Below are positions 1-34,860 of a DNA stretch of 34,860 nt, in pieces. Where the stretch lies: assembly GCA_000934665.2 (NCBI GenBank), contig JYFJ02004110.1, positions 1 through 34,860 of the forward strand, in the 5' to 3' direction. The notes beneath the pieces were generated by a model, which saw nothing but the letters and a program-made list of their open reading frames with translations, ran no database searches and was not told where the DNA came from. This stretch comes from Catajapyx aquilonaris. Taxonomy: Eukaryota. Numbering within the stretch: position 1 is the stretch's first letter; every line of letters starts with the position of its first letter. The position numbers were made by a program, and so were the translations under genes.

Positions 1-85
1 ATAGCACTGCACATGGTTATAGGCTGGAAGGGAGGGATGTAACCCAAGACACTAACGGTACTAATCAAGGTTGTCACTGTTGCAG

Positions 86-1067
86 ACACAGCTGGACAAG
101 ACTCTGGATGGACCAGTGGAGGGTGTGGAACCATCATATGACATTTTTCAAGTGGTCGAGGTGCAGGCAGGAGAAAAGCAGGCAGTCGAGGTGGTAAGTG
201 TTCTTGAAACCAACTTGTTAATAATTGGGGGAAAATAATGATATTGCATGCAATCAATTAAAAAATGAAATCATATTTTTGTGTTATTACATGAGAAGAT
301 CGCATGGTTTTGCCAAACACATAATTTGATAAATGCAACTGTTCCAAATGTATGGTTTCTGTATGTTGAGTACATTATTATTTTATTATATTTTTGTATT
401 TATTTTATTATTTATTATTTTATTATTTATTTTTTCATACCCCGTGCTCGAGCCTTTCGCTCCCTTGGTGGATTACCGCCATTGGATGGGACCAGGGATA
501 GGGAAGGAAGGAAGCGGCTGTGGCCAATTTTTACGGAAACGAGCCCAGAATTGTCTGGAGGGGACCATGGAAAACCACAGCAAACCCTAGTCGGGGTCGC
601 TGGCCCCGGGATTCAAACCCAGGACCTCCCGATTAGCAGGCGGGCTCCTTATGCCCTACACCAACCTGCTTTGGTAAATTTGTAGGTATTAAAAATGTCC
701 TAATTATTTTAATAATATCCAGGTGGCACCAACTGCCAGTGCCAGTGCTGGTGGCAGCAAAGAAGTCCCAGGCAGACGAACTAGCCGGAGGAACCCCTGG
801 ACTCGGCGCCGTCATCCCGACAAGTCAGGACCAACTCCTCGGGCTGTGGCTGCCAACCGCCTCTCCTCCCTGACTGCGACTAAAATTGCATATTATAAGC
901 AAAAAATAGAACAGGAAAGAGCCAGCCACGAACTGCAGGTGAAGGAGAGGACGTTACTGCTGGAGGTGGAGATCGAGCAGAGGAAAGAGCGCCATGCTGC
1001 TGAAATGGAGCTCATGAAAATGAAAATTGAGAACGAAAAAGAACTCCACAAGAAGAGAATGATTTAA
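86..1067 (+). CDS. 3' exons (86-193, 723-1067) of the putative Myb/SANT-like accessory gene of the Harbinger element (partial)
   Basis: ttgcAG acceptor before 86, GTAAGT donor at 194, cAG acceptor before 723. Phase-0 join reads ...EKQAVEV|VAPTASAS... and ends in a charged coiled coil (KIAYYKQKIEQERASHELQVKE...). Convergent with the transposase. The Myb domain itself is not in the window, so identity is inferred from context. Confidence 0.6.
375..673 (-). mobile_element. tRNA-derived SINE with Deu/Nin-like central domain, inserted in an intron of the Harbinger accessory gene
   Basis: Minus strand: tRNA-like head with B box GGTTTGAATCC (619-609); core GTGGTTTTCCATGGTCCCCTCCAGACAATTCTGGG...AATTGGCCACAGCCGCTTCCTTCC resembling the Deu/Nin SINE domain; 3' stem-loop, then an A-rich (TAAA-like) tail at 436-375. 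Confidence 0.8.
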
Positions 1068-1543
1068 AGAAAATAAATATCTGAGAGGATAATTGAAATT
1101 ATGTAGCATATTTTTATTAGTTGCGGTAATAACCTGTCCATACCAGTTTCAAGATAGAATCCAAGTCAATGTAGATCGAAAAGAGACAAACCTTAGCAAT
1201 CATCCTGTGTTTTGAATTTGACCCAAGACTATCATCCAAATACATAAATTAACACAACTGTACTATATCGCTCAAAAACATGAGACGATTTTGCATGTTA
1301 CTCAAGTGCTGCCTGCACTTGAATCAAATGCAAAATTGTCTCTTTATGTTTTTGAGCGATATAGTACATATGAATATCAGTTGCACTACAAAAGAAAATT
1401 TTCGGTATGAAGAGGTTAAAAAATGGTCAGACATCACTTGGCAGTTACCAAAATATTTTAATGAAACATTAAAATAGCAAAACAAACAAAAGGCAATATG
1501 ACAGACAGATTACCCCTCTCCTTATGAAAATATCTAACTATGC

Positions 1544-3099
1544 CTACAGAGAAAAGTGCCCGTCAATTAGGAGCCGCTGCTTGGGTACCAAAGCAGCAGG
1601 AGGAGGAACATTCGGTGTGTCCACTTCTTCATATTCTGTCCATTTCCCTCGTCTTCTGCACTCCTCAATAAATCCGTGCATTTCCACATCATCCGGGGGG
1701 TCCTCTTCATGGAAGGTCACAGCTATGTTGTGGAGCACAACACACGCCACAATGACAGGCAGGATGTTGTCCAGCCGTATACGCATGCCATACTTCAGGC
1801 ATGCGAACCTCCTCTTCAAGAGACCGTTAACCCGCTCTATGCAATTGCGAGCTAACACGTGTGCCCTGTTGTATTCACGTTCCGCAGCTGATGAAGGTAC
1901 CTCCAGCGGTGTCATCATGTATGACGTTAGGCCATAGCCACCATCTCCAATAAGATGGCCATCTCCTAATCCACCCGCCTCGCATACGGCCTTCATTCTG
2001 GAGGAGTTGAAGATGGTGCTGTCATGCACAGAACCGGGCCACCGGGCAACAACGTTGCTGATTAGCAGGCCAGGATCTGTCACCAACTGCACGTTAATAG
2101 AGAAATAACCTTTCCTGTTTCTGTACAGCTCTGCATCCTCCCCGCCTGGCGACTGGATGGGAATATGGGTGCAATCTATTGCACCCAAGCAGCCAGGAAA
2201 TTCGCTAACCTCATAGAACAACTTTTTGGTCACTCTCCTCTCCTCCTCCGTTGTGGGCAGCTTTGAGTATTTGGGGCGGAGGCGTGCAATGACATCAGTA
2301 ACGCGGTGGATAATTCGGCATGCCGTGCTCTTATGTACCCCAAATAAATCTCCCACAACCGACTGGAACGTCCCAGTTGCATAATAGCGCAAGGCTAAAA
2401 GCAGCTGGTTGAGAGGTGGAAGGCTCTGGTTGCAGTCCGTTGGGTATTCCAAATGCTCTTCAACCTGTCAGTGGAGATGACATTTCATAAATTTGTGTCT
2501 TCCATAGACAATATGTGTGCAATATTTACTTCACAATCACACTGAAATGTGCTAGAGAAAGTTCCATAATGGATACCTTGAAATCAGTATGTAATGAAGA
2601 AGGGTTCAACAGACTGCCATAAAAAATATGGTTGCATTTTATTTACATAATTGTCAGTGTTGTGTTCTTTCAAGTCTTTTGGACATACAGTACCTTGTAG
2701 CAATGTCCTAGAATTAACATTCTATCTCTGTACAGTGTTTATATTGCATAAAAAGGCAGCAAGACACATTTTTTGGAACAGCTTCCATTCACTATCCAAG
2801 CTATATTCCCCACAAAATGCAAGCCCAGTGCGTATACTACGCTGAATTTACACGCCTGGCAAAGGTGGCATGTGTTTTCTTACCTCTGACAACAAGTGCA
2901 GGACTGTAGTTTTACTCAGGCGAAACCTAGCCCTGAATTCATCGCCGTTGTACATTTCAAAGGGCTGGCAGCGAGTGCGATGAACTCTCGCATCTTGGAA
3001 CATGCTGAGATGGGTCAACATCAATCTCTCGTCGTCGTCGGAGTCCGACGATGAGCTGCAGCTGTCCGCCACGTACGGATCGGGCAAAGCGACGGCCAT
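1544..3099 (-). CDS. HARBI1-like DDE transposase, two exons (3099-2884, 2464-1544), 378 aa, apparently intact
   Basis: Exon 1 (72 codons) ends at GAG|GTAAG and exon 2 starts after CAG, giving FRARFRLSKTTVLHLLSE|VEEHLEYPT. Motifs LALRYYATG, GAIDCTHI, NRKGYFSINVQ, ARWPGSVHDS, IGDGGY, RNCIERVNGLLKRRF are present with no stops or frameshifts. Confidence 0.95.
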
Positions 3100-4947
3100 G
3101 ATTCCTCACCACACCCCTCGGGACCGACTGGTTAAGGTGGAGCGAACGCCCCCTCCTCCTTAAAAACCTGAGTGAAAAGCTTCCAGCTGGTACAAGGTTG
3201 CCTGCTTTACATGTGGCAGAGTTGCCACCTGGTGTCACACAGTACCCAAAATCCCAAGCACCAGTCCGCAACCATGACGACATCCATAAACCCGCGGTAT
3301 AAGCAACTTGTGCTGCAGGATCGGCGGGTAGATGGATCGGGCGGTAAATGGGAGGGAGAACGGGCCGTTTTAGAACAACCGTAGGTGGCGCAACACTTCT
3401 CGCGGTATACCGGAGTCAAAACCCGCCGTTTTCCATATACCGTGACTGGTGCAACCGGCCATTAATCTATATAAGAATAATGTTGGTTTTTAGTTTGTCT
3501 TCTGGGAAAAGTCTGTTATGTTTCTTTGTTTGCAAGAAAAATGGATATTTTTTTGGACTGTTGTTTGTTTAGCCATGCACGGATAATCTGCACCCAGATG
3601 ATCGGGAGTACAGTCTATTTATAATCAGTATTTATTGGGTAATGACTTGACTCGACACTGACTGAGTATTAATTTTGCCCATTTTCTCATTTACAGGTTG
3701 TGCAAGTAATGTATGTGCTGTCAAAGCCCCAGACAATGCTGCCAGTGTGGCAGCAAGCTTACCAACTGATCCTTGGTTTTTGTTGGACACACTCTGAGCT
3801 TACTACCTGCCAGATCAAGAAACTGGATGCTGGAGGGTGGTTCCAGAACTGACATTGCCATATGTCAACATAGAGAGTCAGCGATCTTCGTCCTTTGGTC
3901 AAGCCTTCTTCTAGAGTTCCACCTGAATTAACTAACAACCTATTGATATGATACCTACCCTGCCTTGCTCCAGTGATGTTCCCTTCTGCAAGCAGATGCC
4001 TGCCTGGTTTCCATGCAATTCCAATCTACAGTCCTTGCTAACAACAAATGCTTGACAAAAAAGGAGACAGATCCTGAGAACAACTAACACTTTGTAAAAT
4101 CCAGTGGACTTGGTTTAACTTCTTACCAAAGGTTTTGACATAGCATGTTGCTTTAGCCATGGTAGCCATGGTAGCCATGGTTTACTGGTAGTACTTACCA
4201 CTTTCAATGAGTTGTGTATGTCAGAGTTGACTTGAGCCAAAACGAAGAGAGAACCATACTGGAGGACTGAGCAGAAGGACTTGGAGGAGCAACATGGAGA
4301 GAGAGAGAGGCCTTTGGGACAATGGGGAAGGGAAGGGCTTCAATCCCCCAACCATCAAGAGATCCCTTGCGGGATGCTGGCGGGGACAACGTGAGGGTGG
4401 CAGTTGGGAAGAAGACCCAGGGGCCTAATCCACGCCTTCTCCTTGTTCAAGACAAGATGCAACACACCATGTTGCTGCCTGTAAGGCTCACGTCTCCTCA
4501 TGTACCATTAAATAACAAGATTTAATCCAAGTTGGCCAGCACATGAGACGAGCTGCAGCAGCATCTGCATTGGGGTCAGGTATCACCTTTGGCTACATGT
4601 TGAGTGTGAAATTTCCTGCTTACTCACAAAACTAGTATCAATGGGAGGTCAGTGGCAGTGACTGACATGACCTCTTGTCTTCAAGGTTGACCAAGCAGAC
4701 ATGAAACACAGCTTGTTCTGGGTTCGTGATTCCCATCTGCGTTTGTTTTATCATTTAAGCAAGGGTCAAGAACAACCCAACCTCCATATGCCAAATGTGG
4801 GTTCAAGAGTTGTCCCACCTGTGTTTTTTTCCACCCCAACGCCGCCTGCCGGCACCTTTCGCAGCTCTTCTCGCAGAGCACTGGAAACTCGGCTCTTTCC
4901 AGAGTCCATAAGAATCCAGCCCTAAGTTGATAAAATTTCTCCTTCAA

Positions 4948-5215
4948 TCACTTGGCTCGTTTTGCAGATACGGCTTTTTTTGGCGGGACAGCAGAATGCT
5001 GCACTTGAATGATATCATTGCAATTATATGAATGTCTACTTTGTGATGTGGAAGTCTCCATGGAATGTACTTTATGAATATGTTTGCACAGGTGGTTGTT
5101 TTCTGGACACTCACACCTGTACTTGTTATGAGCACCCGAGAGTGAATTTATATACATGGGAATTCTGAACCCGGAGGACATAATTAGACCTTTTGTTTTC
5201 CAATGGGGGAAATGT
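4948..5215 (-). pseudogene. SWIM zinc-finger fragment, probably from a MULE-type transposase C-terminus
   Basis: YRCECPENNHLCKHIHKVH fits the SWIM CxC-xn-CxH pattern. Flanking sequence is not recognisable. Confidence 0.6.
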
Positions 5216-7879
5216 TCCCTGCTCTCACTTAGTCCTTGCTGTTTGCAGTTGCAGCACCAGTTACAACTGGTGCAGTAGGGTGTCATGTACGAGCAGCTGG
5301 CTGGCCGTCTGGGGTGGTTGTAGTGGATGCGTGTCCACAGCCTGCGCCTCCACGGCTTCGGTGCAATTGCCTGCGCCAGCCTGAACATAGCCCTAAACCT
5401 CCTGTCTTGCTGCCTGTTTAGCGTCCACTTTTCCGTTTTTCTGCCCTTCTTTGTGTTCTGCAATTGGTGGACAGCACGTTAGTACATGCACTGTACGTAG
5501 CCTAGGTACATTCTGTTGTTGGACTGGAGGGGCTAGAGCAGGGGTTTTAGCTGCAGGGAGGACAATCTGGCCCATACATGGGCCTAATAGCCCTGGAAGT
5601 GGGGCCGGTGGCATTCGCTGCACCACCGGTGCCGCTTGACCCATAATTGTTGTGTGTGGGACAACGTTGATTCAGAAACCAAGCTAAAAAGACAGAACAT
5701 GTAAAATTTTATGATTGTTTGTACCACATGACTCATCAGCTAAATTTGGTATGCATTTGCTGGGTTGGTGTGACAGTTTCTTATTTGTGGTAAGAGTTAC
5801 TTTTAGATACACATTCCCACACTACAATCACTTGTCAGATATACCACGACACAGCCATTAAGCTAATCTTATCTTGTGCGATCAAGTTCTCATGCGTGGG
5901 ACATGGGTCATGCATGTATTTGACCGGCCCTTGCAGTCATGATACCCCTGGCCAGGAAGAGGCTCCAGCTTGTGGTTTCGCAGCCAAAGCTGCTGCCGCC
6001 ACTTCCCCTCTTCACTTCTCCTGCAGCAGCCTCATATATCTTTCCCGGATGGCCTTCCTTACCCGAAAAGTGCAGGGTACATGGTGGTGAATCCACAATC
6101 CTACTTATTTGTTAAAGTATTATGCCATTTTTGCAGGCAAAAGGTTTGCACATGTTTCAAGCATGATAATTTTTTTTTCCTGTCATTTTTGACTAAAGTC
6201 GCATGGGCAGGTGTCATATTGTCATTCTCTATTGCCCTGAATCGTGCTTTGCCTTGGATCTGCAGCAGGGCTCCTTTTTAGTGAAAGTATCACACATGTG
6301 GTGTGGGGTACAAATTGCACAGGTAAAAAGTGGAAAAATATCTTAAAATGGCACAATGGCTAGAAGCAGCTGGTTTATTGGAGAAATGGTTTGGTTACTC
6401 TGGTTGGTGTTCAACCTGTAATCAGAAGATATGGGGTTTCTTTCGCTTATGAATGACCTTGTTTGCATGTCATTTGTTGCTTCCTCATCTCATTACCCAA
6501 GTAATCCCTGAAGTTCTTGAAATTATCAATGCCCTTGTCAATCATGTAGAGCACTTCACATTTGTTTGTTGGTCAGATGGGACTTTTTGTTCCCATGCCC
6601 ATGGGATAGCGTGAGCCATGCTGGCGTACCTGGTGAATGTGTGGGACAGCTTCTCCCAGGGACACAATTTGCGTTGTGGAACTTCCACTCGTAATCTCCC
6701 AGGCGATGCAATACTTACTAAACTTGGAGGAACGACATCTTTTGTGGGTAACCCGAGACAGGGAAAATGTCGTGCAAACTGAGTCTTGCCTTATTCCAGA
6801 CTCCACTACTTCCCACGAGGATGTGTATGAATACACAGCGTAAGTTTCGAGGGGTACATGCGTCATCCACTGCTGGATCAAGCAGATGCATGGTCATGCT
6901 GGCAGAATTCCACGTTTCCTCTCGCATAAGCTCGATATGGCACTCAAATGTTTCTTTTCTAGGAAACTGAGGAAAAGGACAACCTTCTTCCTTCCATGAT
7001 TTCTCTATCGACAACAAAGGGTACTTCGGCCCTGTACCTTTGGATGAATTGGTTATTTATTTATTAATGATTAAAAACTGCCTAATTGAGTCCAGCCCAC
7101 AAAATTAGCAATGGCAGAAGGGCCATAAAAAATTTGCTGGCGTATCCCACAAGTGTTGCAAAAAAGGAAATCTTGAGATTCCAAACAGCTGGAGCACACC
7201 TGTTCTGAAACTACCAGATTCACCCCATGCAACCACGTGTTCTTGACTGGTGGTGGTCCTGTGTGGTCTCCATATCAAAGAAAATGTAGAGAAAGCTACA
7301 GTTATTGTTGTTACTTCCCCTTCCTCTCGGGCTGCCCACACCACGGTGTCAGCAGATGCTCAGGCACATACTTCTCCAGTGTGTGCAGCTCGGGTGTTGT
7401 ATACTTCTGGATGTAACAAAGGTGACCTCCCATCACCATGGTCTTACACGCCTTCCAGTACCTCTCCCCACAACGGTGTCAGGAGCCTTGTTTTCTCTTC
7501 CACATATCCACTAGCATTGAACATTTTTTACACATAAATAGGCTTTCGCGAAGGGAGAGACTGGTTATACCGACTATTACTACCACTAGTATTAACCTAA
7601 GGTAAACAGCAAGTCAAATCCTATACTTAAAATGCTCCACATACATATTGGAAACAATTATTGCGACGAAAGTGTAAGGCAGCTTGGGGTACGTGGTGCG
7701 GGAAGTGGAATATTGTAGGGGATAAGGAATGGTGTGACATGGTGGATAAATTAGGATCTCGAAGCGAGGCATGCGAGATTAGGCTGGCATTAAAGCAGCA
7801 TTCTTTTCCTCTACTTGCTACAACAAATTTTCATCTTTCTCCCTCGTCCTCGCTGATTGGTAGAATGTATGTCCACAGA

Positions 7880-8345
7880 GAGTGCTTTGCTTTCGCAATA
7901 GACCTTGTCTTCACTAACAACCTGAGCATGAACACTTGAAGGTCGCGGCACTCCTCCCACCAGTCGGCGTGCCCTGCTTCATTGGTAGCCCGCTCCAGCT
8001 AACTCCAAAGCTTCTTCATTATTCCCCTTTCTAATAGCCATTTTCGATAACCTAACCTGAAGGCTTTCAATTGGGTATGGACCACTGCTGCCAACTTCTC
8101 TGACGGCGCGATGCGACCTCCACATATGTATGTTTATATGCCTTGCATGATACATATGTCATCTCCCGGGTGTTGCTGGCTTCACTGGACGTGTCCTGAA
8201 TCATAGCACGACACTTGCTGCACTTGCTGCGGGCAAGGCATTTCCTAGCCATATAGCCGCTGAAATATTGGCATGCGTTGACATCTGCGATACCTGCCGA
8301 GGTCTTTTTGACTTGGTTGATGATGTCATCCTGCGCCTCTTCCAT
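7880..8345 (-). pseudogene. P-element/THAP9-type transposase C-terminal fragment
   Basis: NACQYFSGYMARK...CSKC...VSCKAY, then after a frameshift GGRIAPSEKL...KGIMKKLWS*...WWEECRDLQVFMLRLLVKTR. Matches the Y-x-[AS]-GY, CxxC and GG-x-x-x-PS pattern of P transposase C-termini. Confidence 0.7.
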
Positions 8346-8378
8346 GGTGCGTGCTGTACCCCGAGCTGTATTGTGTCC

Positions 8379-8436
8379 CTCTGACTGGTATGGCGGCTTC
8401 AATTCTCCTGCAACTGTGCCTCTTCTCTTTTAACCT
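8379..8436. repeat. Dispersed 58-bp direct repeat, copy 1 (copy 2 at 21580-21637)
   Basis: CTCTGACTGGTATGGCGGCTTCAATTCTCCTGCAACTGTGCCTCTTCTCTT is identical for 51 bp, followed by one mismatch and then TAACCT. Flanks are unrelated. Confidence 0.95.
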
Positions 8437-8537
8437 CTTCTTGTGCCCGAAGAAGGAGAAACCAGATTAGATTAGGCAATCGCATTGTCGCAAAAATATA
8501 TACTACCTCTCTTTCGATGGTGTATGAAGACTATGAA

Positions 8538-9445
8538 CTATGAAGGGACTAACCTCTGCAGTTCAATGGTGCAGCGAGACGTAGCAGTTCCTTGGGGCTG
8601 AACTGCTGACACCGCAGCTGTGTCCAGCATGTTCCATGCCGACAGGTTCTGTTCAGTGCTGCTCTGCTCCTGATGCTGGATGTTGGTGGATGTGTTGGTG
8701 TCATTTCCGCCCAGATTCTGGTGCTCCATCAACTTGGCCCTCTCCACCATTACAGAGAGGATATCACGTTTGACCCTTGCTTCAACGGACTCTCCCCCAG
8801 CAAACCCCAGCAGCTTAAAGCGTGGGTCCAGGAAAGTGCAGAAAGACAACGTCTTTGAATTTTGCACATTCCCGGTGCGCTTTTCTAAGGCCGCCTGGAG
8901 AGATTCCACCAATTTCTGGAGCAAAGGACTCTCCCACATCTTCTCCCGTAATGTCTGGCATACATCTGCCAGCCCATTCACAAGGACGATCACTTGGGAT
9001 CCTGAAACGTATTTCTCTCCGCAAAGATGCCTCGTTACCTCCTCAAATGGCATCAGAATGTCACAGAGATGATGACAAAGGTGCCACTCTTCGGCGGAGA
9101 TGGTAGGCAGCGTCACGTCAATCATCCCCATTGTGCTACGCAGAGGTTTCTCCAGCTCCACAAATCTCCGCAGCATGTAGAAGACTGAATTCCACCGCGT
9201 CTGAACTGACTATCATCCTCTTTGGTGGGTTTATTCCGAATCTACTTTGATTGTCTTTAAGTTTCACATATGAAACTGTGCTCCTCTTAAAGTGACCCAC
9301 GATGATTTTCACTTTTTCTATTATTCCCTGCACAACCCCGAGTGAATCCTGCATGACCAGGTTTAGAGTGTGGGCAAAACATCCAAGGTGCTTTTCTTTC
9401 ATGTGATCCTTGATCGCAGATGTAATATTTGTTGCGTTGTCTTTC
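8538..9445 (-). pseudogene. hAT (Ac/ZBED1-like) transposase internal fragment
   Basis: DNATNI, HLGCFAHTLNLV, IVGHFKRS, a frameshift near 9210, then TRWNSVFYMLRRF, EEW...LMPFEEVT, LDPRFK. Truncated at both ends. Confidence 0.92.
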
Positions 9446-9451
9446 TGCAAG

Positions 9452-10405
9452 TGCTTTCAGGAACCACGTACTATTATCGGCTGCTCTCACCTGGAGGTCC
9501 GAGTAGCAGCTGTTTGACTTGAGTAGAGAAACTGTGACAGGCTTGCATTTGATGATGTAACATACCTCACCACGTGTGAACGCTGTGTACCCTGGTTCGT
9601 TGCTCATAAGGGCATAAGCGAACTCATCAGGGTTGATGTAGGCCAGGGATTGCAGTGTTCTTAGTGTTTGCTGCCGATCCTGGCACTGTTGCTTCTTCAT
9701 AATTCCGTACATTCGCCCTATCTCAGATCCCAGGTGTTGCTCAAGGAATACGAACTTTGAATTATAATAATAAGCAGCCATATTGACATTCAAGGTGAGG
9801 ATCGACTGTTTTTTGAAGATGAACCCATTAGTCCCCTCAGGTATCAGAACTAGTTGGGGATGCTCCATACGAAAGACATGTTGATTGCACATCACGTCAC
9901 CATCACCCATCTCAACAGCGAAGGCCGTCCCATCGTCTTGGCCAATAGCAACCTTCCTCCCCTTCTCGGGATCAATCACCCTCACCTCTCCTTCATACAG
10001 CACATCAATTGATTGCCCATCACAGAGCGTGGGTGCTTGTGCAGTCCAGAAGGTCTATCCCAAGAAATCGTCCATGCAGTTCTCTTTCTTGTATTCACAC
10101 CTTGCTCCAGACGGCAGCACTGCCTCGTTCTTCTTCCGGTCGATGGTGATCCAATAATCCGAAAGGCGGATTGTTAGATAAACCTCAACAACCACATTCT
10201 TGTACACATACCCGTCAATATTGTAGTCACCTCCAGAGCATTCACCAGATGCTGAGTCGGTATGTCCCACGATGACAAGGGAGGCATGTGTCGTGATGTT
10301 GAGCGGGCTGTCGATAGGACGCAGGCTGGTTCAGTAGCGATAGACTCCAGTCCTAGTAAACATCTCGCATTCGTGTCGCGTATGTTCCTTTCTGTACGTA
10401 TTGAC
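9452..10405 (-). pseudogene. Endogenous viral element: chuvirus-like (Chuviridae/Jingchuvirales) glycoprotein fragment
   Basis: One frame with two internal stops: ...GECSGGDY...YKNVVVEVYLTIRL...LPSGARC...CMDDFLG*TFW...DVLYEG...MEHPQL...AYYYNSKFVFLEQH...QQC...LAYINPDEFAYALM...PGYTAFTRGEVCYIIKCKPVTV...CYSDLQV. Motif order matches chuviral G proteins as I know them. Confidence 0.85.
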
Positions 10406-24206: not shown

Positions 24207-24720
24207 TTATCTTAAGAACGCCCTTATAAATTGGTTGATGTCCCCGCGCCACACCGGGCAAGGTATATGGCTAGCTCGCATTACTTCCACACAAGTGTGA
24301 CAAATAACATGGCCACAGTTAGTTCCGTAATTCCAAAATCGAATTAGACATACGCTGCATGAATCGACCGGTCGATCGGGGATCATCATGGTCGTCGTCG
24401 TCATCGATAACAATAACATCATCGGCACCACCACCCCCAACTGCAGCGGCAAGAGCAGCAGCACCACCAACCGGACCGGCGGCGGCGGTTGAAGCAGCAC
24501 CAGCTGGATGGATAAAAGACAGGTGTGAAACAATCCTGCACTTTCTTTACATGCTGGTAGGTCCAGTACCCTCAATGATTATATGCTTACCGTTTATTTG
24601 CTGATTCAAATATGATCGAACTGTGTAGCATGCTCTGAGGAGATATTCCTTTAGCCTGTTCGCATACTCCCCACTGCTGAATCGTTGTTGAAGATTTCAG
24701 ATGTTTGTCTGTTGGCGAAT
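24207..24720 (-). pseudogene. Degenerate C3HC4 RING finger preceded by a possible MULE transposase C-terminal helix
   Basis: CSVC...CGHVICHTC...CPVWR (last Cys mutated to Trp). Upstream, LQQRFSSGEYANRLKEYLLRACYTV resembles MULE C-termini. The RING is well supported, the MULE link is weak. Confidence 0.6.
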
Positions 24721-24859: not shown

Positions 24860-25425
24860 ACTCATTGAAAAGCATCACGTCCAACCTACAGGCAGAAGTC
24901 CTTAATTCTAGAAAGCTTACTTGTGGCACCTATCACTTTCAACCCAGAACTAACTCTCCTATCAATCTCCCCATCCATTCTACCATTACTCTCAAGGGCA
25001 CAACCCAGGTATACAAACTGGTTGGGCTGCTCAACCAGTTTTCCTCGTACCTGCAACATACAAGGAGAAACCTGCTGTCCTCTCAAATACCAATACCTTA
25101 GTAGTAGTAGTAGTAGTAGTGTTTTATTTCCTGAATGCTTACAGCACATAGGAAAGACATCTCTCCTCACATTACTATATCAGCATGTTCCAATTTTGCA
25201 ACAACTTGTTCAAAATACTTATACCAATACCTTAGTCTTATCTACGTTAATCCTCATACCCCTCTTTTCACGAACATTATCTAACTTGCATAGGATCAAC
25301 TGTAAATCAGCCTCACTCTCCGCCAGAAGGGCAGAATCATCTGCATGCAGCAAGTGACTAACTAACTCATCACCAAACTGCACTCCTACACCTTCAATCA
25401 TTGTGTGACGCCAGGTTCTAAGGTA
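24860..25425 (-). pseudogene. RTE-like LINE reverse transcriptase fragment
   Basis: LVSHLLHADDSALLAESEADLQ...GMRINVDKTKVLVFER (after removing the 25103-25220 insert)...VEQPNQFVYLG...GEIDRRV. Confidence 0.9.
25103..25220 (-). mobile_element. 118-bp 5'-truncated retroposon insertion with (CTA)n tail
   Basis: Perfect 16-bp TSD ATACCAATACCTTAGT at 25087-25102 and 25221-25236, with a (TAG)n run at the left end. Excision restores KTKVLVFER. Confidence 0.88.
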
Positions 25426-25529
25426 GTACCACCTAGGTCGCAAGGATGTCGCGGAATGTCGCCTCGGTGTCCGACCATGATTCTTGCCGCTGTTCGGGTA
25501 CCCCCATGAACAACCAGATTCAGCCACCT

Positions 25530-26255
25530 CGACTGGTTTTCAGGCACTTGGTTAGTTTTTCCTCCCCTGAGGCACAGGCTGAGTTGAAGTCAGCAACTAA
25601 GACATCTGAGGCAGGCATGGATGACTGCAGTGTGCGAAGGACAGGTGAGGACTGATCGAACGGAAAGCTGTCGAACTCAATCATGCATGCGACAAGGTCC
25701 TGTACACACTGCTCATCTTCGCGCATCCGTTTGGGGCGACATTCTGTGTGCTTCATCTCGACGTTCTTTCGGTTGGCCAACTTGTTAGTTGCGGCTCTGA
25801 TTCGGGCAGCATACGGGCGAGGTACTATATCGCTCAAAAACATTTTCGCGCACTTCCTCTCTGGCGGTTCCGTTAAAAATGTTTGAAAATGTAAGTATCC
25901 CGGGAAATACATTGCCAATTAAAGGGTTCAGTACGATGGTTGTACAATTCATTGCAGTTCTACCGACCTTTTACGCAACTGCCACGTTACATTTCTACCA
26001 TGTGGTGATCGTCTTGGATTTCAGGGTCAGGATGGCGTCGTAACGCCAAACCAATGTCAGAATCGGAATCTTCGTGGTCGATTAACCCGAAAAAGTGCAA
26101 TTGTACATGATTCTATGTGCTTTGGATCTCAAAACTTACACGGTCATAAAGGTGCCGACGGCCATCTTTGATTTGAGGCCGTGGGAAAAAATTCTGGAAT
26201 TTTTCGGAGGGACATGGAGGCTTAATATGTTCCGATAGGTCCTAGGAACCCAACC
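25530..26255 (-). mobile_element. Fragment of an unclassified DNA transposon: coding piece (25530-25850) joined to terminal-type sequence (25900-26255)
   Basis: HTECRPKRMREDEQCVQDL...PFD...LRTLQSSMPAS...DFNSA...GEEKL resembles a widespread invertebrate transposon-associated ORF family. GCCATCTTTGATTT and CGTCTTGGATTT subterminal-like motifs. Superfamily not assignable by eye. Confidence 0.45.
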
Positions 26256-26309
26256 GGCTAGTCAAACCTTCCTTGCCATAGAATGGTCACGGAATATCGG
26301 ATTATGACT

Positions 26310-26495
26310 CTACTATTTAGCAAAAGAAGCTGCACCATAGCCATGTGTCCATTGGAAGCAGCCTGGTGCAGTGAGGTCTCACCATCATTATTGACTTCCA
26401 GCTGGGCACCCTTCTTCAGCAGCAGTTTCACCATATCAGTCAGTTGCTGCGACACAGCAAGATGAATAGGAGTCTCACCATCTCCGTTGGTTGGT
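26310..26495 (-). pseudogene. Ankyrin-repeat fragment (two repeats)
   Basis: DGETPIHLAVSQQLTDMVKLLLKKGA and NNDGETSLHQAASNGHMAMVQLLL fit the ankyrin consensus. Confidence 0.88.
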
Positions 26496-26529
26496 GCAAC
26501 TTGTTGATCTTCAGCCAGCATGATCTTAA

Positions 26530-27026
26530 AGGGACACTCCACTCAAAATGCAAGTTGGACTCTAAAAATCGGGCAAGAAATCCTGATTCCGAGTGTATAA
26601 GCAGTTTTTCTGAGAGACGAACGGTAAGGCCAGGGCGAGCCGTCAAAGTTAGGCAATTCGAATCTGCCGCAAAACAGCAGCGCCTCTCCCGGGACTGGGC
26701 AGAAATTGGCATATTCCTGCGCCATCTTGATCCACGCCATGGTCCGCGCCATCTTTGGTCCGTCCCACAGGTTTATCCCGCCACCTCTTGACCCGACCCG
26801 ACTTTCAGTACTGAAACACTTTCGCCTAGCGCCCAGTGGCGGCGCTCACGGCGGTGGCGGACTGGGTTGGCGGGGCAGCTCATTAGCAGACGACGCAAAT
26901 TATGAGTCTTTAACGCCTCGTCCTGGCTTTTCTGTTCCGCGTAGAAAAAAACCGATTGCACCTTCGGAATCAGGATTTTTTGCCCGATTTTTAGAGCCCA
27001 ACTTGCATTTTGAGTGGAGTGTCCCT
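26530..27026. mobile_element. Kolobok-type MITE (497 bp)
   Basis: 63-bp TIRs starting AGGGACACTCCACTCAAAATGCAAGTTGG (2 mismatches). TTAA TSD at 26526-26529 and 27027-27030. AG termini favour Kolobok over piggyBac (CC). Excision restores the frame ...LLATDFKIMLAEDQQ. Confidence 0.92.
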
Positions 27027-27952
27027 TTAAAGTCAGTGGCCAGGAGATTTGCCTTCTTGCATACCACTCCTAGATATGACTCGGGCTGAGGAAAACAAAA
27101 TTATTAGAACTTTAATTTACACTGCATTAAATGTTTCTTGACTGTTATTGACTTACCTATTCGGCTTTGGGCGTCAGGTTTCTCCCCCAATCTCAGCAGC
27201 AGTATGACAAGGGCAGCATTGACCTTAATTTTGTCATATTCAGTCTCAGGATATTTTCCCTCCATGGCATGTAAATCTCCCATGATTTTTCCGATTTCTG
27301 TGGTCTTCTTGGACTTCAGCAATTTTGGTACGAGAAGCCCAATTCCTTTCAGGAAGTGTTCCTCCAAATGCTCAATGTTGCCATTGAGCCGTTCAAATTC
27401 CTTGATTATCGGAAAAAATACATGTATATTTTACAAATACATTGCATGATTTCATTCCAATCAACAGAAAACCCACCTCGCTTCCCTGGAATATGGCTGG
27501 ATAGTTCTGCCGCAGCTCCGTTAACGACACTCCCTTCTCTATCATTCCTCGGCGATCTGCCATTGTGGCCGCCATCCGGAATGATATTTTTTCTTTGTCT
27601 GGTGACCTCTGTCATTTAAAAATGTCAACATTTACTGGCATGTCTTTAAACCTGAATAAAAAATACTTGAAAAAGCAAAAACTCCCACTTCGCATCTCTT
27701 TCCGCATAAAGTCTTTATGCTTCAATATAGAGGCTTCGTCTTCATCGCCTTCAGATTCTGGAACCTTCTTGCTGTAAGAAATGCGATGATCCCCCATTGT
27801 CATTGAGGCTTGTTTCTTTGGTTGACGCTCTTTCTTCGTTTGATAAGGCTGGAGGGCACCAATTTTTCTCAGCCTCACACGTTCATTTCTGAACTTTGCA
27901 CTAAGGGAGGACTTCCAATAATTCTGCAAATGAATTTTTATAGTTAGGCAAG

Positions 27953-28005
27953 ACATACTTAGGGCATGGACACAACATACTTAGGGCATGGACACAACAT
28001 ACTTA
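27953..28005. repeat. 22-bp tandem duplication inside an intron
   Basis: ACATACTTAGGGCATGGACACA x2 plus partial ACATACTTA. Confidence 0.9.
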
Positions 28006-28509: not shown

Positions 28510-28790
28510 TAGTCAACCGTCAACAGTCATCAAACGCCAACTAATCCCCCGCGCATGGAATGAATGTCTTAGTCTGAAACTGACATTGTTCAATGTCACT
28601 GCACATGTTCTGAAGGAATTGTGCACATTCGTTATTTTCCCTCCCAAGCCCTCCTGGACTCCTTTTTGTCACTATAGGTAGAATTGAAACAATCAAAAAG
28701 TTGGTCCATTCTGCTAAATCCACTTGCCCGTGGCTTCTGCACCCTGCAATACATTGAACTATGCCATAGCCCCCATCGTCTTGCCAACAC
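28510..28790 (-). pseudogene. P-element transposase internal fragment
   Basis: Across frameshifts: AEATG..., SRMDQLFDCFNST...RRAW, QFLQNM, FIPC. Matches the D-x-LFD-x-x-NS motif of P transposases. Confidence 0.6.
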
Positions 28791-28839
28791 CTGCTGACTT
28801 TGGAGCACTCCAGGGAACCTCAGGTGTGCCGGTCATCAT

Positions 28840-29115
28840 CCGCAGCCGCTTCCTCATGGTCCGTGGCAAGTCCACAATCCTCACCAGGTGGTGCGTTCGG
28901 ACCAGCGACCTGGCCAGTTCATTCAAGAATGATGATCTGCCTGTCTTCCACTGTGTGGCCATGCTGTACAACACGAATGCGTTGATCCCCACCACATTGA
29001 GCAGGTGGAAGAAGAGAGCCAGCGGCCACCTGCGGGTCCACCGGCTGACGGTGTAGTTTCCCACCATTTGATCTACAACTCCTGCTTTTGTCTGGTTGTA
29101 AAAAGTCACGTAAAG
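28840..29115 (-). pseudogene. piggyBac (PGBD4-like) transposase C-terminal fragment
   Basis: FYNQTKAGVVDQMVGNYTVSRWTRRWPLALFFHLLNVVGINAFVLY...RSSFLNELARSL. Confidence 0.92.
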
Positions 29116-29867
29116 CCTCATCACTTCTCTCTAAAGTTCCATGTACTGTGCAGTATAGCGCATGAGGGATGACATTTAAAAAAACAAGTCACACTGTTGA
29201 CAATTAGAATAATTCAATCGTCACAGGATATTGCCATGTAAAGAAAATAGTAGTCACATTGTTGACTCTTAAAAGCAATTAAAGAATTATATACCGAACG
29301 TAATTTAATTATTACTGGTCGTTTTGACTAGTAATATGCCTACATGCCAATATGTTTACAAGGAGGTCGCAAGACAGGCTACAGTGATCAATTCAGGCCC
29401 TGCTGGCGTTCCGTTGTAATAAAATTTCATCTGTGGTGTGCGAATGTAATATGAAGATGTTATGATATGGGGATGTGGTGATGATGATATAAGTAGGCAA
29501 CAAAATAAACGTATTCTCTTATGTGTATTCAATATATTATAACCGTAGCATGCAATCACGATCGTTCATGCTGTAATTACTGTCTTAAACTCCCTATGCG
29601 CTGATAGACGTGTCATTTATGGTTTTCATTGTCACATTTATTATGCTTATTCAAGTAAAATCGTACACATTTTTATACCACTACATGCAGTTATATGCAA
29701 CTGGCCAGTTCTCCTTACATAATTAGATTATACCCTTTTATTGAATCCTAAGCACAGGTATATTCAAAAATCGGGGGTAGCAGGCTAGTTTTTTTTGTGA
29801 TACACTCTCCATCTGAAAAGAGAATCATGTTTAGACACCCATCTCTTGCTAGCTGCAAGTAATCTTT

Positions 29868-30491
29868 CCTGGCCGCTAAAATGCCAAATGCATTTTCAAC
29901 AGTTCGCCTTGCTCGGGACAGCCGATAATTGAAGATGCGTTCCATCTTGCCCAGATCTTTTTTGGAATATGGCCGCATCATGTTTACTTTCAGTGGAAAG
30001 GCCTCATATGCCAAAAATACATGTGGCAGAGTTAACGTACTGCCTGCAAGGTCGGTTGGTGGTAGAGGCAGTTCAGCATTCAGGATGGCCTGGCCCATGC
30101 TGCTCCGACCGAAAACGCCCCCATCACTCTCTCGGCCATAGGCACCCACTTCAATAAATGTAAATGCATACCCTGCATCTGCCACGGCCATGAGGACGAT
30201 GGAATGGAACAATTTGTAATTATAGAACATTGATCCTGATTTTGGGGGAGGGGGGCAACCAGAGCTACGTGCTTTCCATCGATGGCTCCCACCCAATTGG
30301 GAAAATTCCATAATTGCTGGAAGTCCCTCGCTAGTTTCCTCCATGCCTCTTCATTGGGGTTTGGCATGACCTCTTCCTGGAGGGCTGTCCAGAGGCTTTG
30401 GCAGGTGTCGTGGATAATAGTGGCCACTGTGCTACGGCCGCAGCGATAGCTAAACGCTATGCTTCGCACAGCATCCCCCGTTGCCAAGAAT
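29868..30491 (-). pseudogene. Second PIF/Harbinger transposase (different lineage from 1544-3099), frameshifted and truncated
   Basis: After a cAG acceptor: FLATGD...WNFPNWVGAIDGKHV, frameshift, SGSMFYNYKLFHSIVLMAVADA...GRESDGGVF...AYEAFPL...IFNYRLSRARRTVENAFGILAAR. The second catalytic-region Asp reads as Tyr. Confidence 0.93.
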
Positions 30492-30516
30492 CTGCAGTAG
30501 TTGTTAGAGATAAGAA

Positions 30517-31530
30517 TATTTATTTATTTATTTATTTCATACCCCGTTATCCGGCCTGGGGCCGTTATTGGGGGGACACCACCGCCATTACCATCAGTTA
30601 CATAATTGCATATATTTGACAAATTTACAGAAAAAAGAATACAAAGAGAATGCTTGTTGCTTAGTTAGGTTGTCGAACACATAAGGCAGAAGTTCCATAG
30701 GAAGTACTGATAGGTTATACAAATAGGCTTTGCGAAGGGTTTTAAATATAGGACAGTCGTATAACAAGTGATAAGGGGATAATTTTTATTTAATTTACCC
30801 CGTGTTCGAGCCTTTGGCTCGTTTTTGATAAGGGGATAAGAGGGCATTGATATTACACCAGTCACAGACATCATCAGAAATAACTTGGATCGAGACACCC
30901 GATTTAATAGGAAGATATTTGGAGCCATTTCTTAGATTAGCTATCATACGCTGCCAATAGAAAGGCAATCCAAGTGTAAGATATGGTTCTAGTCCAAAAC
31001 TGAGTTTGATTTATTTATAATGATTGTATCTGTGAGCGTGCTCTAATTTGGTTAGCAGTTGTGTTTTTAGCTGTAGTTCCACTTTGGTGAGTAGTGATGG
31101 TAGATCTGTCAAGAGATCTTGCCAATCTAGCCCAAGAGATTCTCTTAGCGCTTGTCCAGACTTGCGCCAGTTTACTCTGTCTGGGGCTATGGCATAACTA
31201 TAGGCCATCCGTAGTATAGTATTATCCGGGAGTTTGTCAAATTTGATGATAAGTTTAGCCACAGATTTAACTAAATTTACTGTCAGCGGAATTTGGCCGG
31301 TTTCCAAGTAAACAAAATATTATGCGGTGTTTTTTTGGTAAAAGTAAAGGTTTTTTCAGAAAAAATAGCTGGACTTGGTTTATGACCTCAAACTGGGTTA
31401 AGCCCCATAGAGATAAGAATATGCGGACTATGGTGACTATGTCTAAAATTACAGGAAGACTTGCCCTTTCATATGTATATCTCAGTTTTGAACTAAAATT
31501 AAGTCTTCAATTACTTTCTGATTTGCCCTC
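30517..31530 (-). mobile_element. 5'-truncated LINE: ORF2 C-terminus, 3' UTR and (TAAA)n tail
   Basis: LWGL...NQVQLFFLKK...LETGQIPL...YLT...IANLR...VCDWCNINALLSPYHLLYDCPIFKTLRKAYL (CCHC motif restored after removing 30783-30825 and one TSD copy). 3' stem-loop at 30552-30564, tail at 30517-30537. Confidence 0.8.
30783..30825 (-). mobile_element. 43-bp retroposon 3'-end insertion (stem-loop plus tail only)
   Basis: Perfect 14-bp TSD TGATAAGGGGATAA at 30769-30782 and 30826-30839. Hairpin CGAGCC-TTT-GGCTCG at 30807-30821. Closely similar to the SINE 3' end at 438-462. Confidence 0.9.
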
Positions 31531-32079
31531 GTAATTGACTCAAGGTACTCTCATAAATGCATGCATTATAATTAGTGCAAGGACAAGAAAATAATACTGA
31601 AATACGTTACCGAAGGGTTATAGCCAGCCTTTCCGCTCTTCCGCTCGTCATCTTCCGTTGTTTCTTCGTCTGATGAGCTATCTATGTGTTGTGCTTTCTT
31701 GGCACGTTTTGCAGTCGTCTTCTTTCCACTGCTTTGTTTTGCTTGGCTTTTCCATTTTCTTCCTCTTCCCTCTTTGCTGCTTCTCTTCCACCAACTTCCT
31801 TTTCACTGGTGTATCTGTCTGAATGGTCGAAACCCTCTTCTTTCATCCACGGTTAGATTGTGTTCGCGGTCCTGCTGGCGGGAGAGGTCTAACTTTATCT
31901 GGAGTAAACGACTTTCTGCTTTCAACGACCCCTGAGGTACTCGGTCCATCAGATGAAGGTTCTGCTGATATTTAAGCGTTTAGGCCTATGCTGTTGCTCG
32001 ATTGAGGCTGACTTTCATTCGGGCTGGGTGGGATGACTGTTGCACATTGTGCTTCTTGAGTTTCATTGTCCAGGTTTGG

Positions 32080-32857
32080 GTCAAGGCGATCAGTAGCATA
32101 ACCTGGCGTTGAAAATAAAACCTCTCCAACTTATGGATAACATCATGCAGGAAGTCATCGGACCGCATCACCAGAACTTGAACCTGTGTGTAGTACTTAT
32201 GTGATGGCTTTAACATCCACATACCATTACTGTCCTTCTGCAGGCACTCAACATTGCTAATGTCGCCTTGTATCACTCTCTGATGCTCACATGTAGAGGG
32301 GCACTTAATTTCAATAAGAATGACTCCAGTGTCTCTCATTACTAGTCCATCTGGACTACAGCAAAGCCAAGGATGTCTTGTACTAATATAATGTGTGTTA
32401 CCTGTTTATGGTTGGTAGTTACATCTACTGTGCCAAAGCAATTGGTTTTCCATCACTATACCATACCTCATGGCCTTGGTGGATCTTTTCTCGCAAGAAC
32501 CTCTTTGCAAGAATTTCATAATCTTTTCTTCGTGTTTTCATGTCATGGGCCCTTGTGCTAGCTGATATCCTTACCCTCCTATGTGATGCCCACAGACCCC
32601 TTTCATCCAAATGTTGTGACCTTGTCTCCATTGCTACAGTCCTAACACCTGGAGAACTGAGGCAGATCTTTGACTGGTAATACTGCAGCTCTGAGGCTGT
32701 CAAGTCTTTTCTAAAATCATACACAACTATGTTCAGTTTCACATCTGTATCACTTGGTGGAACTGTGGTCCAAAACCCACAAGTGATCCCATCCCTGAAT
32801 CCCTGCTCCAAAACATCAAGGACATGTTCGTTGCGTTTAGTCTCAGCAATGTCTGCA
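32080..32857 (-). pseudogene. YqaJ-like exonuclease gene fragment (ISL2EU/Harbinger-type accessory gene)
   Basis: ETRSQ...LWASHRRVRISAS, PWLCCSPDGLV, LIEIKCP, LKPSHKYYTQVQ, KLERFYF. PD-(D/E)xK motifs, with frameshifts and deletions. Confidence 0.85.
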
Positions 32858-32947
32858 GCTTTCCAGTTGCAGCCCAGCCACCTTCAAAGTTTGCCCCTGA
32901 GACTTGTTGATGGACATGGCAAAGTTGAGCCTTACAGGAAATTGGCA
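32858..32947 (-). pseudogene. 90-bp sliver of a PIF1-family helicase, most likely Helitron Rep/Hel
   Basis: Manual translation in a frame absent from the ORF track: CQFPVRLNFAMSINKSQGQTLKVAGLQLES. Confidence 0.88.
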
Positions 32948-34394
32948 TCAGCAGTGAGACGGGCCTGACGTTCTACCTCACTCTCCTGCCTCTTTTTTTT
33001 TCTTCGAGTAGCTGGTAGCTTGAGCACTCAGACGTACCTGGTGTTCTTCCTCAGTCTCTTGGTCCCTCCTTTTGCCGGACACTGCGTGTATGCGATGAGT
33101 TTTACTGCATGATATAGAGATGCTGACGCGTAAACCAGTGCCGAAACCAGACGCCATTGTCGCCGTCCGACTTTACGCCCGGGCCCGGCTAAACAGGCGG
33201 GAGGGGCGGGAGCCGGGAGCACCTGCGATCTGTACCGTGATCTGTACCCATAATGGCGGCCATCTCGGAATTGCCATCAGCGCCTCGATAGGCCGCCGCG
33301 CTTGCGAATAGGTTGTGACGATTTTTATAACCAGCTTTATGACATGGTTGTCATCTACCTGTGTGTCATACTGATGGTCATGTAATGAACTAAAAATGTC
33401 TTTTCCCTATAGCAGTTCTAAAACACTGCTGATAACGTTTCTCAATATAATATCCATACGTCCCTGCTTGCTTCTGCTTCCTGGAGTCTTGCGTTTCCTT
33501 CCTTGCGATGGTGCCGGAATCTGGTATGACAATGATGGCTGCAGGGGGGATGGGTTGTTGGTGCTAACAGTTACGCCTGATAATAACCCCCCTGATGGCC
33601 CCCCGATGGTATCTCCACCTTATCGTGGTGGTGGGGTTTGCGTTTCTCCCATGACCCCAAGAGCTATACCGGCGGTAGCTTCGTCTACTGGTAGGGCCGG
33701 ACAGGTCTTTGGGATAGGAGACAGACTGCCTGCGGTGGTCACGCGATGTCTACATCGAGCACATCACTGGAGTGAGGCAGTTCTAACTTTGCCTGTTTGT
33801 TTATGTAAAACGTCCCCCCCATGGGTGTCATAATGTCTTTTGTTTTATTACAGCTGTGAACCATTTTTTAAATATGGCATAGTGTTTTGCTGGGTTTACA
33901 TGATTGTGTCTATATGTGGCATGTTGAATTCTGTTTTTAAAACATTGTTTGCAGTTTTTATGTCGTTATGACCATCAGAATTTGAGATATTCAAGTCAAA
34001 GACATAAATAAAAACCAGTCTTTCCTCTCTTCTTTTTCCTCTTCGTTTCTCCCTCCATCTGTCCCACCTTTGCTTCTTCTTACAGCCAGATAGCCACAGT
34101 TGCTTTGGCTTCTTCCAAATAAACCAAACCAAACCTGACAATGGTGAAGTAAGCAGCATGGGATTGGGGACAGCTTGCAGAGATGGGCTCTGGTTGATCA
34201 TGCCATCCAAACCAGGCAATGGTCTAGCCATCCGTAGCAGATGATTGGAGGAAGCAGGGATAAGATATCCACGAGGCAGGCTAGGTGGCAGTGTAGACAG
34301 CACAATGGAAGGCTTTTGTGGCGCTGGGTATCTTATGACACCAGGGCAGACACGAGGTTGTGTGCTTGCAGGAGCTGACACGCACAGGGCCTTG

Positions 34395-34545
34395 GAAACA
34401 AGGCTTGTGTTGCTCCGGCTGGTTGAGTGCAGAGCACTGCTGCAGGCACCACAACGGAGACCTACATCCACTTGTCTGACTACATAACCTGCAATGTATT
34501 CTGTCACGTCCTCTACGTACACAGAGAGGGAGCTGCTTAGTTCTA
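34395..34545 (-). pseudogene. THAP9/P-element transposase C-terminal fragment
   Basis: YVEDVTEYIAGYVVRQV...CGACSSAL...SLVSK. Confidence 0.75.
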
Positions 34546-34554
34546 TTCACTTAC

Positions 34555-34690
34555 CACACTTGTAGTACTTCACTATTGCATTTTCAGGGAGTACCCAGAG
34601 TTTTTCATCTGGCTTCTCCTTCTGCACAATATATTGCTTTTGTGGGATTGCGGTAAGGAGGCCACCAACAAGAAGCAAGAGCTTCTATAC
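34555..34690 (-). pseudogene. Isolated exon resembling the N-terminal CWWPP region of DUF4806-type accessory proteins
   Basis: Bounded by ttttAG and GTAAGT. Reads SCWWPPYRNPTKAI, frameshift, KEKPDEKLW. Confidence 0.4.
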
Positions 34691-34860
34691 CTAAAATTGG
34701 GTAATGGGGAAAACTCATAATAAATACCGGAGCAAAGAAACTATGGAAAACGAAAATGTTGGTGGGGGAGTGGGGGGATGGTGGTGTGGGGGGAATCAAG
34801 GTAGAAGGGATTTGGAGCTGGCAGAGCGGCTCCCGGCAAATGCGCGCGGCCAAAATTCGG

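Follow-up and report, generated by a model that had tools for sequence, protein, structure and literature searches.

Co-oriented DNA-transposon remnants and a chuvirus-type glycoprotein gene in Catajapyx aquilonaris: a candidate one-strand piRNA source

Why should every detectable coding remnant in a stretch of 34,860 nucleotides from Catajapyx aquilonaris (NCBI GenBank assembly GCA_000934665.2, contig JYFJ02004110.1, positions 1 to 34,860; the whole stretch is called the window here) lie on the minus strand, and could the window be a one-strand source of PIWI-interacting RNAs (piRNAs)? A preliminary description of the locus had counted about 23 unrelated coding fragments of transposable elements and a virus, all on that strand, and had likened the arrangement to the flamenco (flam) cluster of Drosophila. 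In this study, the co-orientation was found to be total among the coding remnants that can be detected, and the window is a plausible further case of a known type of locus, a good candidate and not a discovery. Judged from the sequence, the chance that it is a one-strand piRNA source is about even.

The two strands were scanned alike. All 361 stop-to-stop open reading frames (ORFs) of at least 50 aa (191 plus, 170 minus) and all 321 ORFs of 33-49 aa (162 plus, 159 minus) were compared with Pfam, and in a whole-frame scan the six frames were searched at an E limit of 0.01 with stops read as X, so that HMMER bridges stop codons. The strict count takes ORFs at or above the curated Pfam cut-off of the family, and the relaxed count adds weaker matches. 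All 12 ORFs that reached the curated cut-off are on the minus strand, and they make up nine independent pieces:

1547-3099, minus strand: Harbinger/PIF-type (HARBI1-like) transposase gene, apparently intact, two exons, 378 aa (cut-off ORF 1547-2467)
9290-10461, minus strand: endogenous viral element (EVE), a chuvirus-type (Monjiviricetes) fusion glycoprotein, PF24664, with in-frame stops, single copy (cut-off ORFs 9290-10054 and 10058-10330)
13385-14250, minus strand: hAT transposase, C-terminal part; Dimer_Tnp_hAT 5.4e-6 (cut-off ORF 13385-13618)
18110-19213, minus strand: Mutator-like (MULE) transposase, C-terminal part; PF20700 4.6e-8 and 2.8e-11 (cut-off ORFs 18110-18811 and 18815-19213)
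22733-23739, minus strand: MADF DNA-binding domain over two frames; PF10545 3e-7 (profile 44-84) and 1.2e-6 (profile 1-41) (cut-off ORFs 22733-22960 and 23302-23739)
26261-26542, minus strand: ankyrin-repeat fragment, itself a cut-off ORF; Ank_2 2e-15, 311 ankyrin-repeat chains in the PDB
28762-29130, minus strand: piggyBac transposase, C-terminal part, itself a cut-off ORF; DDE_Tnp_1_7 2.4e-6, profile 299-349/349
29751-30523, minus strand: second Harbinger transposase, frameshifted; DDE_Tnp_4 4e-18 (cut-off ORF 29751-30350)
31989-32405, minus strand: YqaJ-type exonuclease domain remnant, itself a cut-off ORF; PF09588 3e-6, or 1.6e-8 through stops, profile 33-142/150

About six weaker pieces, again all on the minus strand, enter the relaxed count:

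375-665, minus strand: tRNA-derived retroposon resembling a short interspersed nuclear element (SINE), with a tRNA-like head (598-665) and an A/T-rich simple-repeat tail (375-436)
8541-9456, minus strand: hAT transposase, middle part, frameshifted; hAT-like_RNase-H E 0.021 on 8541-9209, below the cut-off
24210-24578, minus strand: RING-finger-like remnant; zf-RING_5 6.4e-5, 23.3 bits against a cut-off of 27.9
25222-25539, minus strand: reverse-transcriptase remnant, of non-LTR type by eye (LTR, long terminal repeat); RVT_1 2.5e-4, 21.2 bits against a cut-off of 29.6
32846-32947, minus strand: Helitron/PIF1-type helicase C-terminal motif, 34 aa; best PDB chain the Helraiser transposase 7lcc, E 0.002
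33899-34546, minus strand: 216-aa ORF opening with a P-element-type C-terminal motif; Tnp_P_element_C E 0.24, residues 12-27

Several of these assignments were examined further. The MULE piece, read through its stops, matched its profile at 3e-23 over positions 242-357/357, and it is the same piece that the preliminary description had called NOF. The piggyBac piece matched residues 435-526 of 594 in the piggyBac transposase of PDB entry 6x67 (4.6e-9), and the Atlas look-alikes of 13591-14250 on the minus strand are hAT and FAM200-GTF2IRD2-like clusters with scores of 0.91-0.96. A hAT-type motif is visible by eye in the minus-strand ORF 9139-9456, which adjoins 8541-9209. The match of the helicase tail to 7lcc covers residues 1415-1441 of 1496 and is followed by 14 chains at E 0.12-0.9, 13 of them named PIF1 helicase; the minus-strand ORF 32742-32972 was discarded as the helicase tail, being in the wrong frame and returning only TAL-effector repeat rows with no matched stretch. 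Beyond its E of 0.24, the motif at the start of ORF 33899-34546 is one that we take to be of P-element type. The head of the SINE-like element matched the Rfam tRNA model RF00005 over positions 1-71/71 with 25.3 bits and E 0.0048; the match is on the minus strand, and its score stays under the gathering score of 29. ARAGORN predicted no tRNA for this head, the window has no Rfam match at gathering scores and no tRNA in the tRNA scan, and the tail contains a tandem repeat at 375-432.

The plus strand gave only two Pfam matches among its ORFs of at least 50 aa, with E 0.006-0.008 and both far under the cut-off, while four comparable noise matches accompanied the 12 real ones on the minus strand. 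ORFs of 33-49 aa gave no real match on either strand and two sub-threshold noise matches, both minus. In the whole-frame scan, nine plus-frame proteins (36,658 aa, stops as X) returned no Pfam family at E <=0.01, and nine minus-frame proteins returned matches at 10 loci. When the frames were compared with PDB sequences, none of the three frames of the plus strand over 21.6-34.9 kb matched a chain, and the minus frames of 23.2-34.9 kb matched, in turn, the piggyBac transposase, nothing, and the 311 ankyrin-repeat chains; in all, three minus-frame translations, including this one frame of 23.2-34.9 kb, found no chain. Plus-strand transposon matches, of which many would, by the preliminary description, have been grounds for giving up its proposal, were not found at all in Pfam or the PDB.

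The orientation of the pieces gives a two-sided binomial p of 0.0039 for nine of nine and of 6e-5 for 15 of 15, and would reach 2e-7 only if all 23 pieces were real. The chance probability of roughly 1e-6 first proposed leaned on pieces that were not verified and has to be replaced by 4e-3 (strict) to 6e-5 (relaxed). Likewise, the claim that all coding remnants are on the minus strand holds for nine of nine pieces at the strict and about 15 of 15 at the relaxed level, with none on the plus strand, but about ten named pieces found no tool support: SWIM, two of the three P pieces, the third hAT, the second YqaJ, DUF4806, Kolobok-type, EnSpm-like, SAMD3-like and the long interspersed nuclear element (LINE). 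Judged by eye, the translations of several of them are plausible; the 'Kolobok-type' minus-strand ORF 19670-20065 has no relative among longer proteins, and the 'DUF4806' minus-strand ORF 16832-17251 has no Atlas match. Two alignment-free signals point the same way as the strand bias. ORFs of at least 200 aa number none on the plus and seven on the minus strand (at least 150 aa, 4 and 11), and the plus strand has a pyrimidine excess in most bins, the pyrimidine-rich strand being expected opposite the coding strand.

If the window is a piRNA source, it would be a transposon 'trap' of long standing that belongs to the one-strand cluster type. The plus strand would be transcribed into a long RNA, perhaps through read-through of a gene ending near 1.1 kb; insertions antisense to that RNA would give rise to antisense small RNAs and would hence be retained. 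The outcome would be an archive of co-oriented and mostly decayed fragments from many DNA-transposon superfamilies, together with one chuvirus glycoprotein gene and a small number of retroposons. Plus-strand transcription, piRNA processing and selection as the cause of the shared orientation would all be parts of this scheme. At the level of DNA, the window carries several traits of such clusters, namely the total co-orientation, many unrelated families present once or twice each, a co-oriented RNA-virus fragment and unique mappability, and the co-oriented pieces extend over 0.4-34.5 kb, up to its 3' end.

The state of the pieces was assessed from their structure and copy number. They are truncated and carry stops and frameshifts; the MULE and piggyBac pieces cover only the parts of their profiles given above, and the glycoprotein covers positions 95-413 of 653. 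The idea that they are mainly 3' coding ends of 5'-truncated complementary DNA (cDNA) was dropped, given these glycoprotein positions, the 33-142/150 covered by YqaJ, and the first hAT piece, which is a middle part. DNA contigs from two runs of one sample, covering 4-24 kb, provided depth for copies of at least 90% identity. Most of 4-24 kb is single copy at this identity, and exact contigs of depth 22-33 lie over the EVE, MULE and MADF pieces and others (depth 24 for 8816-10790 at the EVE; depth 21.8 for 17096-19108 at the MULE). The single-copy depth indicates that most pieces are old, without a second copy of at least 90% identity in the genome, and that small RNAs from the locus would map uniquely. 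Repeated bins were found at 14.0-15.3 kb (~150-450-fold), 4.0-4.7 kb (~40-fold), 23.3-24.0 kb (~30-fold), and 13.3-14.0 and 15.3-16.7 kb (~8-10-fold).

The pieces come from different superfamilies and are mutually unrelated. Repeats of at least 40 nt within the window comprise one inverted pair and three direct families, of which two are duplications confined to 15.2-15.4 kb. The only sequence common to two distant places is a 69-nt direct repeat of 96% identity at 8379-8447 and 21580-21648, present in two P-like regions separated by 13.2 kb. In each run, one DNA contig connects 7472 with 21063 through a 29-base anchor, and this junction could represent another genomic copy of the family or a deletion allele.

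The viral piece gives a very strong profile match. Its two ORFs matched PF24664 at 1.5e-56 and 1.5e-16, and the match rose to 5.4e-82 with stops read as X. It has the minus orientation of all other pieces, and its neighbours are the hAT piece at 8541-9456 and unannotated DNA, with no LTR-element domain found there. Among longer proteins no relative shares words with its ORF, and the viral contig collection contains no match. A strong profile match without such relatives means that the donor lineage appears to be distant from the sampled viruses.

The Harbinger gene near the left edge differs from the other pieces. Its ATG is at 3099, and exon 1 (3099-2884, 72 aa) is separated by a GT..AG intron (2883-2465) from exon 2 (2464-1547, 307 aa). 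Joining the exons gives an uninterrupted frame that aligns collinearly with full-length HARBI1-like proteins; among 120 relatives, nine have an N-terminus matched by exon 1, and the Pfam matches on 1547-2467 are DDE_Tnp_4 (1e-32) and HTH_Tnp_4 (7e-11). In total, 1447 relatives were found with a top identity of 60%, the nearest named ones being arthropod proteins at 50%, and tblastn with 120 Harbinger proteins found only two loci in the window, both minus, with 84 high-scoring segment pairs at 29751-30523. The gene may belong to an active element or have been domesticated, and the statement that all pieces are remnants has to be corrected for it. Terminal inverted repeats (TIRs) are not claimed, as the only pair around it (1474-1492/3558-3576; 19 nt, 84%) has no matching flanking triplets. 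The region upstream of the gene, at ~3.1-3.45 kb, contains many CG dinucleotides by eye; CpG observed/expected is only 0.53 in the 3001-4500 bin that covers it. Across the bins of the window this ratio is 0.4-0.9, a depletion that we take to suggest a DNA-methylating genome, unlike that of Diptera.

The intron of this gene also bears on two ways in which the array could have acquired its polarity without selection on random insertions. In one, orientation was not selected: the pieces were captured on the minus strand by Helitron or Pack-type transduplication, or by a reverse transcriptase that switched templates across several mRNAs. In favour of this, the array includes a Helitron helicase tail, host-like fragments (ankyrin, RING, C2H2, MADF) share the orientation of the transposon pieces, the viral piece has to have been reverse transcribed, and most pieces are internal coding fragments with no element ends seen, although ends were sought only around Harbinger. 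Parts of the literature also report sequence-capturing TIR elements in animals (PMC8277862). Against this, the Harbinger gene with its intron is not a cDNA copy, and neither an element boundary nor a terminal structure encloses the array as a whole. An array of 33 kb with at least 15 captured pieces would probably also go far beyond the captures described. We therefore regard such capture as very unlikely. In the other, reverse-transcribed fragments of transposon, viral and host mRNAs would have been added unidirectionally to a dedicated locus, giving a heritable archive, like a spacer array, from which transcription of the opposite strand yields antisense small RNAs. The internal fragments without visible ends, the RNA-virus piece, the co-oriented host-like fragments and the single-copy state of the pieces are compatible with this scheme as well, and the retained Harbinger intron again counts against it; we consider it highly improbable.

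A further question is whether the array lies within a plus-strand transcription unit of the host. One candidate was found at the left edge:

92-1077, plus strand: possible 3' end of a gene, with exon-like stretches at 92-196 and 723-1067

The first stretch ends in a donor, GTG|GTAAGT, and the second is an ORF preceded by an acceptor and ending in TAA (stop at 1065), with AATAAA at 1072; the frames are compatible across 196|723, and the minus-strand SINE lies inside the putative intron. The candidate has no Pfam match and one weak relative (E 4.8e-4) among 1.84 billion proteins, and the plus-strand ORF 693-1064, with only this one match, was not accepted as a gene. If real, the candidate gene stops ~0.4 kb short of the nearest co-oriented coding piece, and a stop and AATAAA at 1065-1077 just upstream of that piece would fit a read-through layout, as a lead only.

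These exon-like stretches, with their good splice-site-like borders, favour the possibility that the array occupies a long intron, a 3' untranslated region or a non-coding plus-strand unit, from which sense insertions were purged for their splice or polyadenylation signals, with no piRNA role. However, the stop and AATAAA that follow 723-1067 place the array downstream of the candidate gene and not within an intron, and the exon has no homologues. No plus-strand coding match was found within 1.1-34.9 kb, hence no enclosing exons downstream in the window; a position inside an intron of a plus-strand host gene, which had been named beforehand as another explanation of antisense bias, found no support, the only exon-like plus-strand sequence being that at 92-196 and 723-1067. 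AATAAA is equally frequent on the two strands. Intronic antisense bias is reportedly only partial. The bias in the window is total, and it concerns mostly DNA transposons (Harbinger, hAT, MULE, piggyBac, Helitron). The transposon landscape of introns shares with the window a co-orientation relative to a long transcription unit through purged sense insertions, but it involves mainly LTR elements and LINEs, whereas at least five DNA-transposon superfamilies are biased here and no flanking exons enclose the array; in its available passages, the study of intronic bias gives a sense/antisense fold-difference and leaves DNA transposons out of the analysis (PMC3088655). Together, these data make a location within a host transcription unit distinctly unlikely.

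Several observations weigh against a one-strand piRNA source. No LTR-retrotransposon domain (integrase, gag, protease or env) and no Gypsy match was found on either strand in the Pfam ORF and whole-frame scans, and the sole reverse-transcriptase match in the window is the one sub-threshold RVT_1. The ankyrin, RING, C2H2 and MADF pieces look host-like and are not foreseen by a transposon trap. Since most pieces have no genomic copy of at least 90% identity, small RNAs made from them would have few present-day targets. The intact, intron-bearing Harbinger gene with its own upstream region suggests minus-strand transcription there. The plus strand shows no shortage of AATAAA (27 vs 30) or ATTAAA (12 vs 12), and a depletion of polyadenylation signals on that strand was accordingly rejected. 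An A16 tract on the plus strand (13038-13053), within single-copy sequence, may be the tail of a plus-oriented retroposon, which would then be the only plus-oriented element. Tool-supported pieces occupy 7,991 of the 34,860 bases (23% of the window annotated), and the remaining 77% may hold non-coding plus-strand repeats; outside the annotated parts, ORFs of at least 150 aa are only 2 plus and 5 minus, and stop-codon density is equal between the strands (1158 vs 1189). Furthermore, the window was chosen out of a very large scan, so that the strict p of 0.0039 is not compelling by itself.

The latter points are also those that an ordinary, non-functional transposon graveyard would explain, in which the orientation is shared by chance among the many windows scanned and pieces lacking independence inflate the count, for example if MADF is part of a Harbinger or if neighbours arrived jointly. 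Only nine pieces exceed curated thresholds, and the pieces lacking verification number about ten. When the weaker but sensible matches are included, however, about 15 of 15 agree, the ORFs of at least 200 aa and the composition skew point in the same direction, and the pieces are spread over 33 kb and at least eight superfamilies with no common sequence except the one 69-nt direct repeat. We thus consider a chance graveyard unlikely, and return to the one-strand piRNA source to compare it with known systems.

In flam-like loci, strand bias itself served as a criterion for finding the locus, and sections of the report define these loci by LTR/Gypsy enrichment, which drives the bias; the flam-syntenic clusters measure 227-1,085 kb, and the de novo ones exceed 35 kb (PMC10643416). 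The window is like them in that strand bias is the sequence-level criterion and in the trap model. It differs in lacking any LTR, Gypsy, integrase or gag match, in consisting mainly of DNA transposons, and in being 34.9 kb long and open at its 3' end, for which no exact 44-base match was found in the metagenome contigs. The contrast with LTR-dominated flamenco drawn at the outset is therefore real, with DNA transposons prevailing, and for the same reason the label 'flamenco-like' does not apply in the strict sense: the window would work like a one-strand cluster if expressed, and it is outside the flamenco-like class as defined in Drosophila by LTR/Gypsy content. The broader reading as a one-strand cluster fares better in its DNA-level anatomy, with unrelated transposon pieces and a viral piece that are co-oriented and mostly unique, but not in LTR/Gypsy content, of which none was found.

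Mosquito clusters offer a second comparison. In the portions consulted, EVEs in Aedes and other mosquitoes are described as interspersed with transposon fragments in one direction, inside clusters that produce antisense piRNAs (10.1101/127498), and core one-strand clusters are described as often beginning right after an upstream gene and being transcribed by read-through (10.1101/2022.08.22.504762). The window resembles them in that a non-retroviral viral fragment lies among transposon fragments in one shared orientation, and a possible plus-strand stop with AATAAA lies just upstream, where the mosquito clusters have the gene that is read through. In mosquitoes, however, the EVEs are in Ty3/gypsy or Pao-Bel LTR sequence, whereas hAT and unannotated DNA surround the EVE here, and piRNAs have been demonstrated there, whereas those of the window are predicted.

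Dominance of DNA transposons is, in turn, a feature of mollusc clusters. In passages of one study, piRNA clusters of the pond snail show up to 108-fold enrichment of the DNA transposons Kolobok and hAT, and those of the oyster an enrichment of Dada and Polinton; these clusters favour young, low-divergence copies, unlike the mostly old, single-copy pieces of the window, and the main text of that report does not address orientation under the terms 'strand' or 'unidirectional' (PMC6128900). Since both DNA-transposon-rich clusters in molluscs and EVE-bearing one-strand clusters in mosquitoes have been described, the locus type is not new.

The window contains further features, three with minus orientation and three with none assigned:

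4951-5478, minus strand: 176-aa ORF with a Cys/His pattern, the SWIM piece of the preliminary description, seen by eye; no Pfam support even at E 5
8070-8429, minus strand: P-element-type C-terminal motif, recognized by eye, without tool support
20664-21170, minus strand: C2H2 zinc-finger ORF, weak; zf_C2H2_ZHX E 0.0013, below the cut-off
14594-14810, orientation not assigned: short, very high-copy repeat; many loose contig ends at 14594 and 14642
15073-16690, no orientation: ~1.6-kb element between long imperfect inverted repeats (TIR-like); ~10-fold depth
26494-27062, no orientation: inverted duplication with arms of ~165-190 nt; 164-nt arms, 76% complementary

For the high-copy repeat, bins 14006-15339 have summed depths of 11,225 and 4,102, where single-copy DNA has ~25; this corresponds to hundreds of copies. 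The arms of the 1.6-kb element pair at 15383-15418/16508-16543 (92%), 15073-15086/16577-16590 and 15079-15093/16674-16688; the element holds local direct repeats (15188-15381) and an (AAAT)9 microsatellite (15644-15680), and a T15 tract follows at 16691-16705. The inverted duplication, which overlaps the end of the ankyrin fragment and may be a foldback insertion or one like a miniature inverted-repeat transposable element, is the only inverted similarity in a six-frame self-tblastx (26494-26685 vs 26871-27062). The two inverted-repeat elements have no orientation and so count neither for nor against the bias. A perfect 22-nt tandem repeat of 2.4 copies lies at 27953-28005.

If small RNAs confirm it, the window would be a one-strand cluster predicted from sequence in an apparently little-studied species, archiving extinct DNA-transposon families and a chuvirus. 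It would then add a data point on how frequently flamenco-type 'traps' originated outside Diptera and for elements other than endogenous retroviruses, and total strand bias of coding remnants would be usable to predict such loci from raw sequence.

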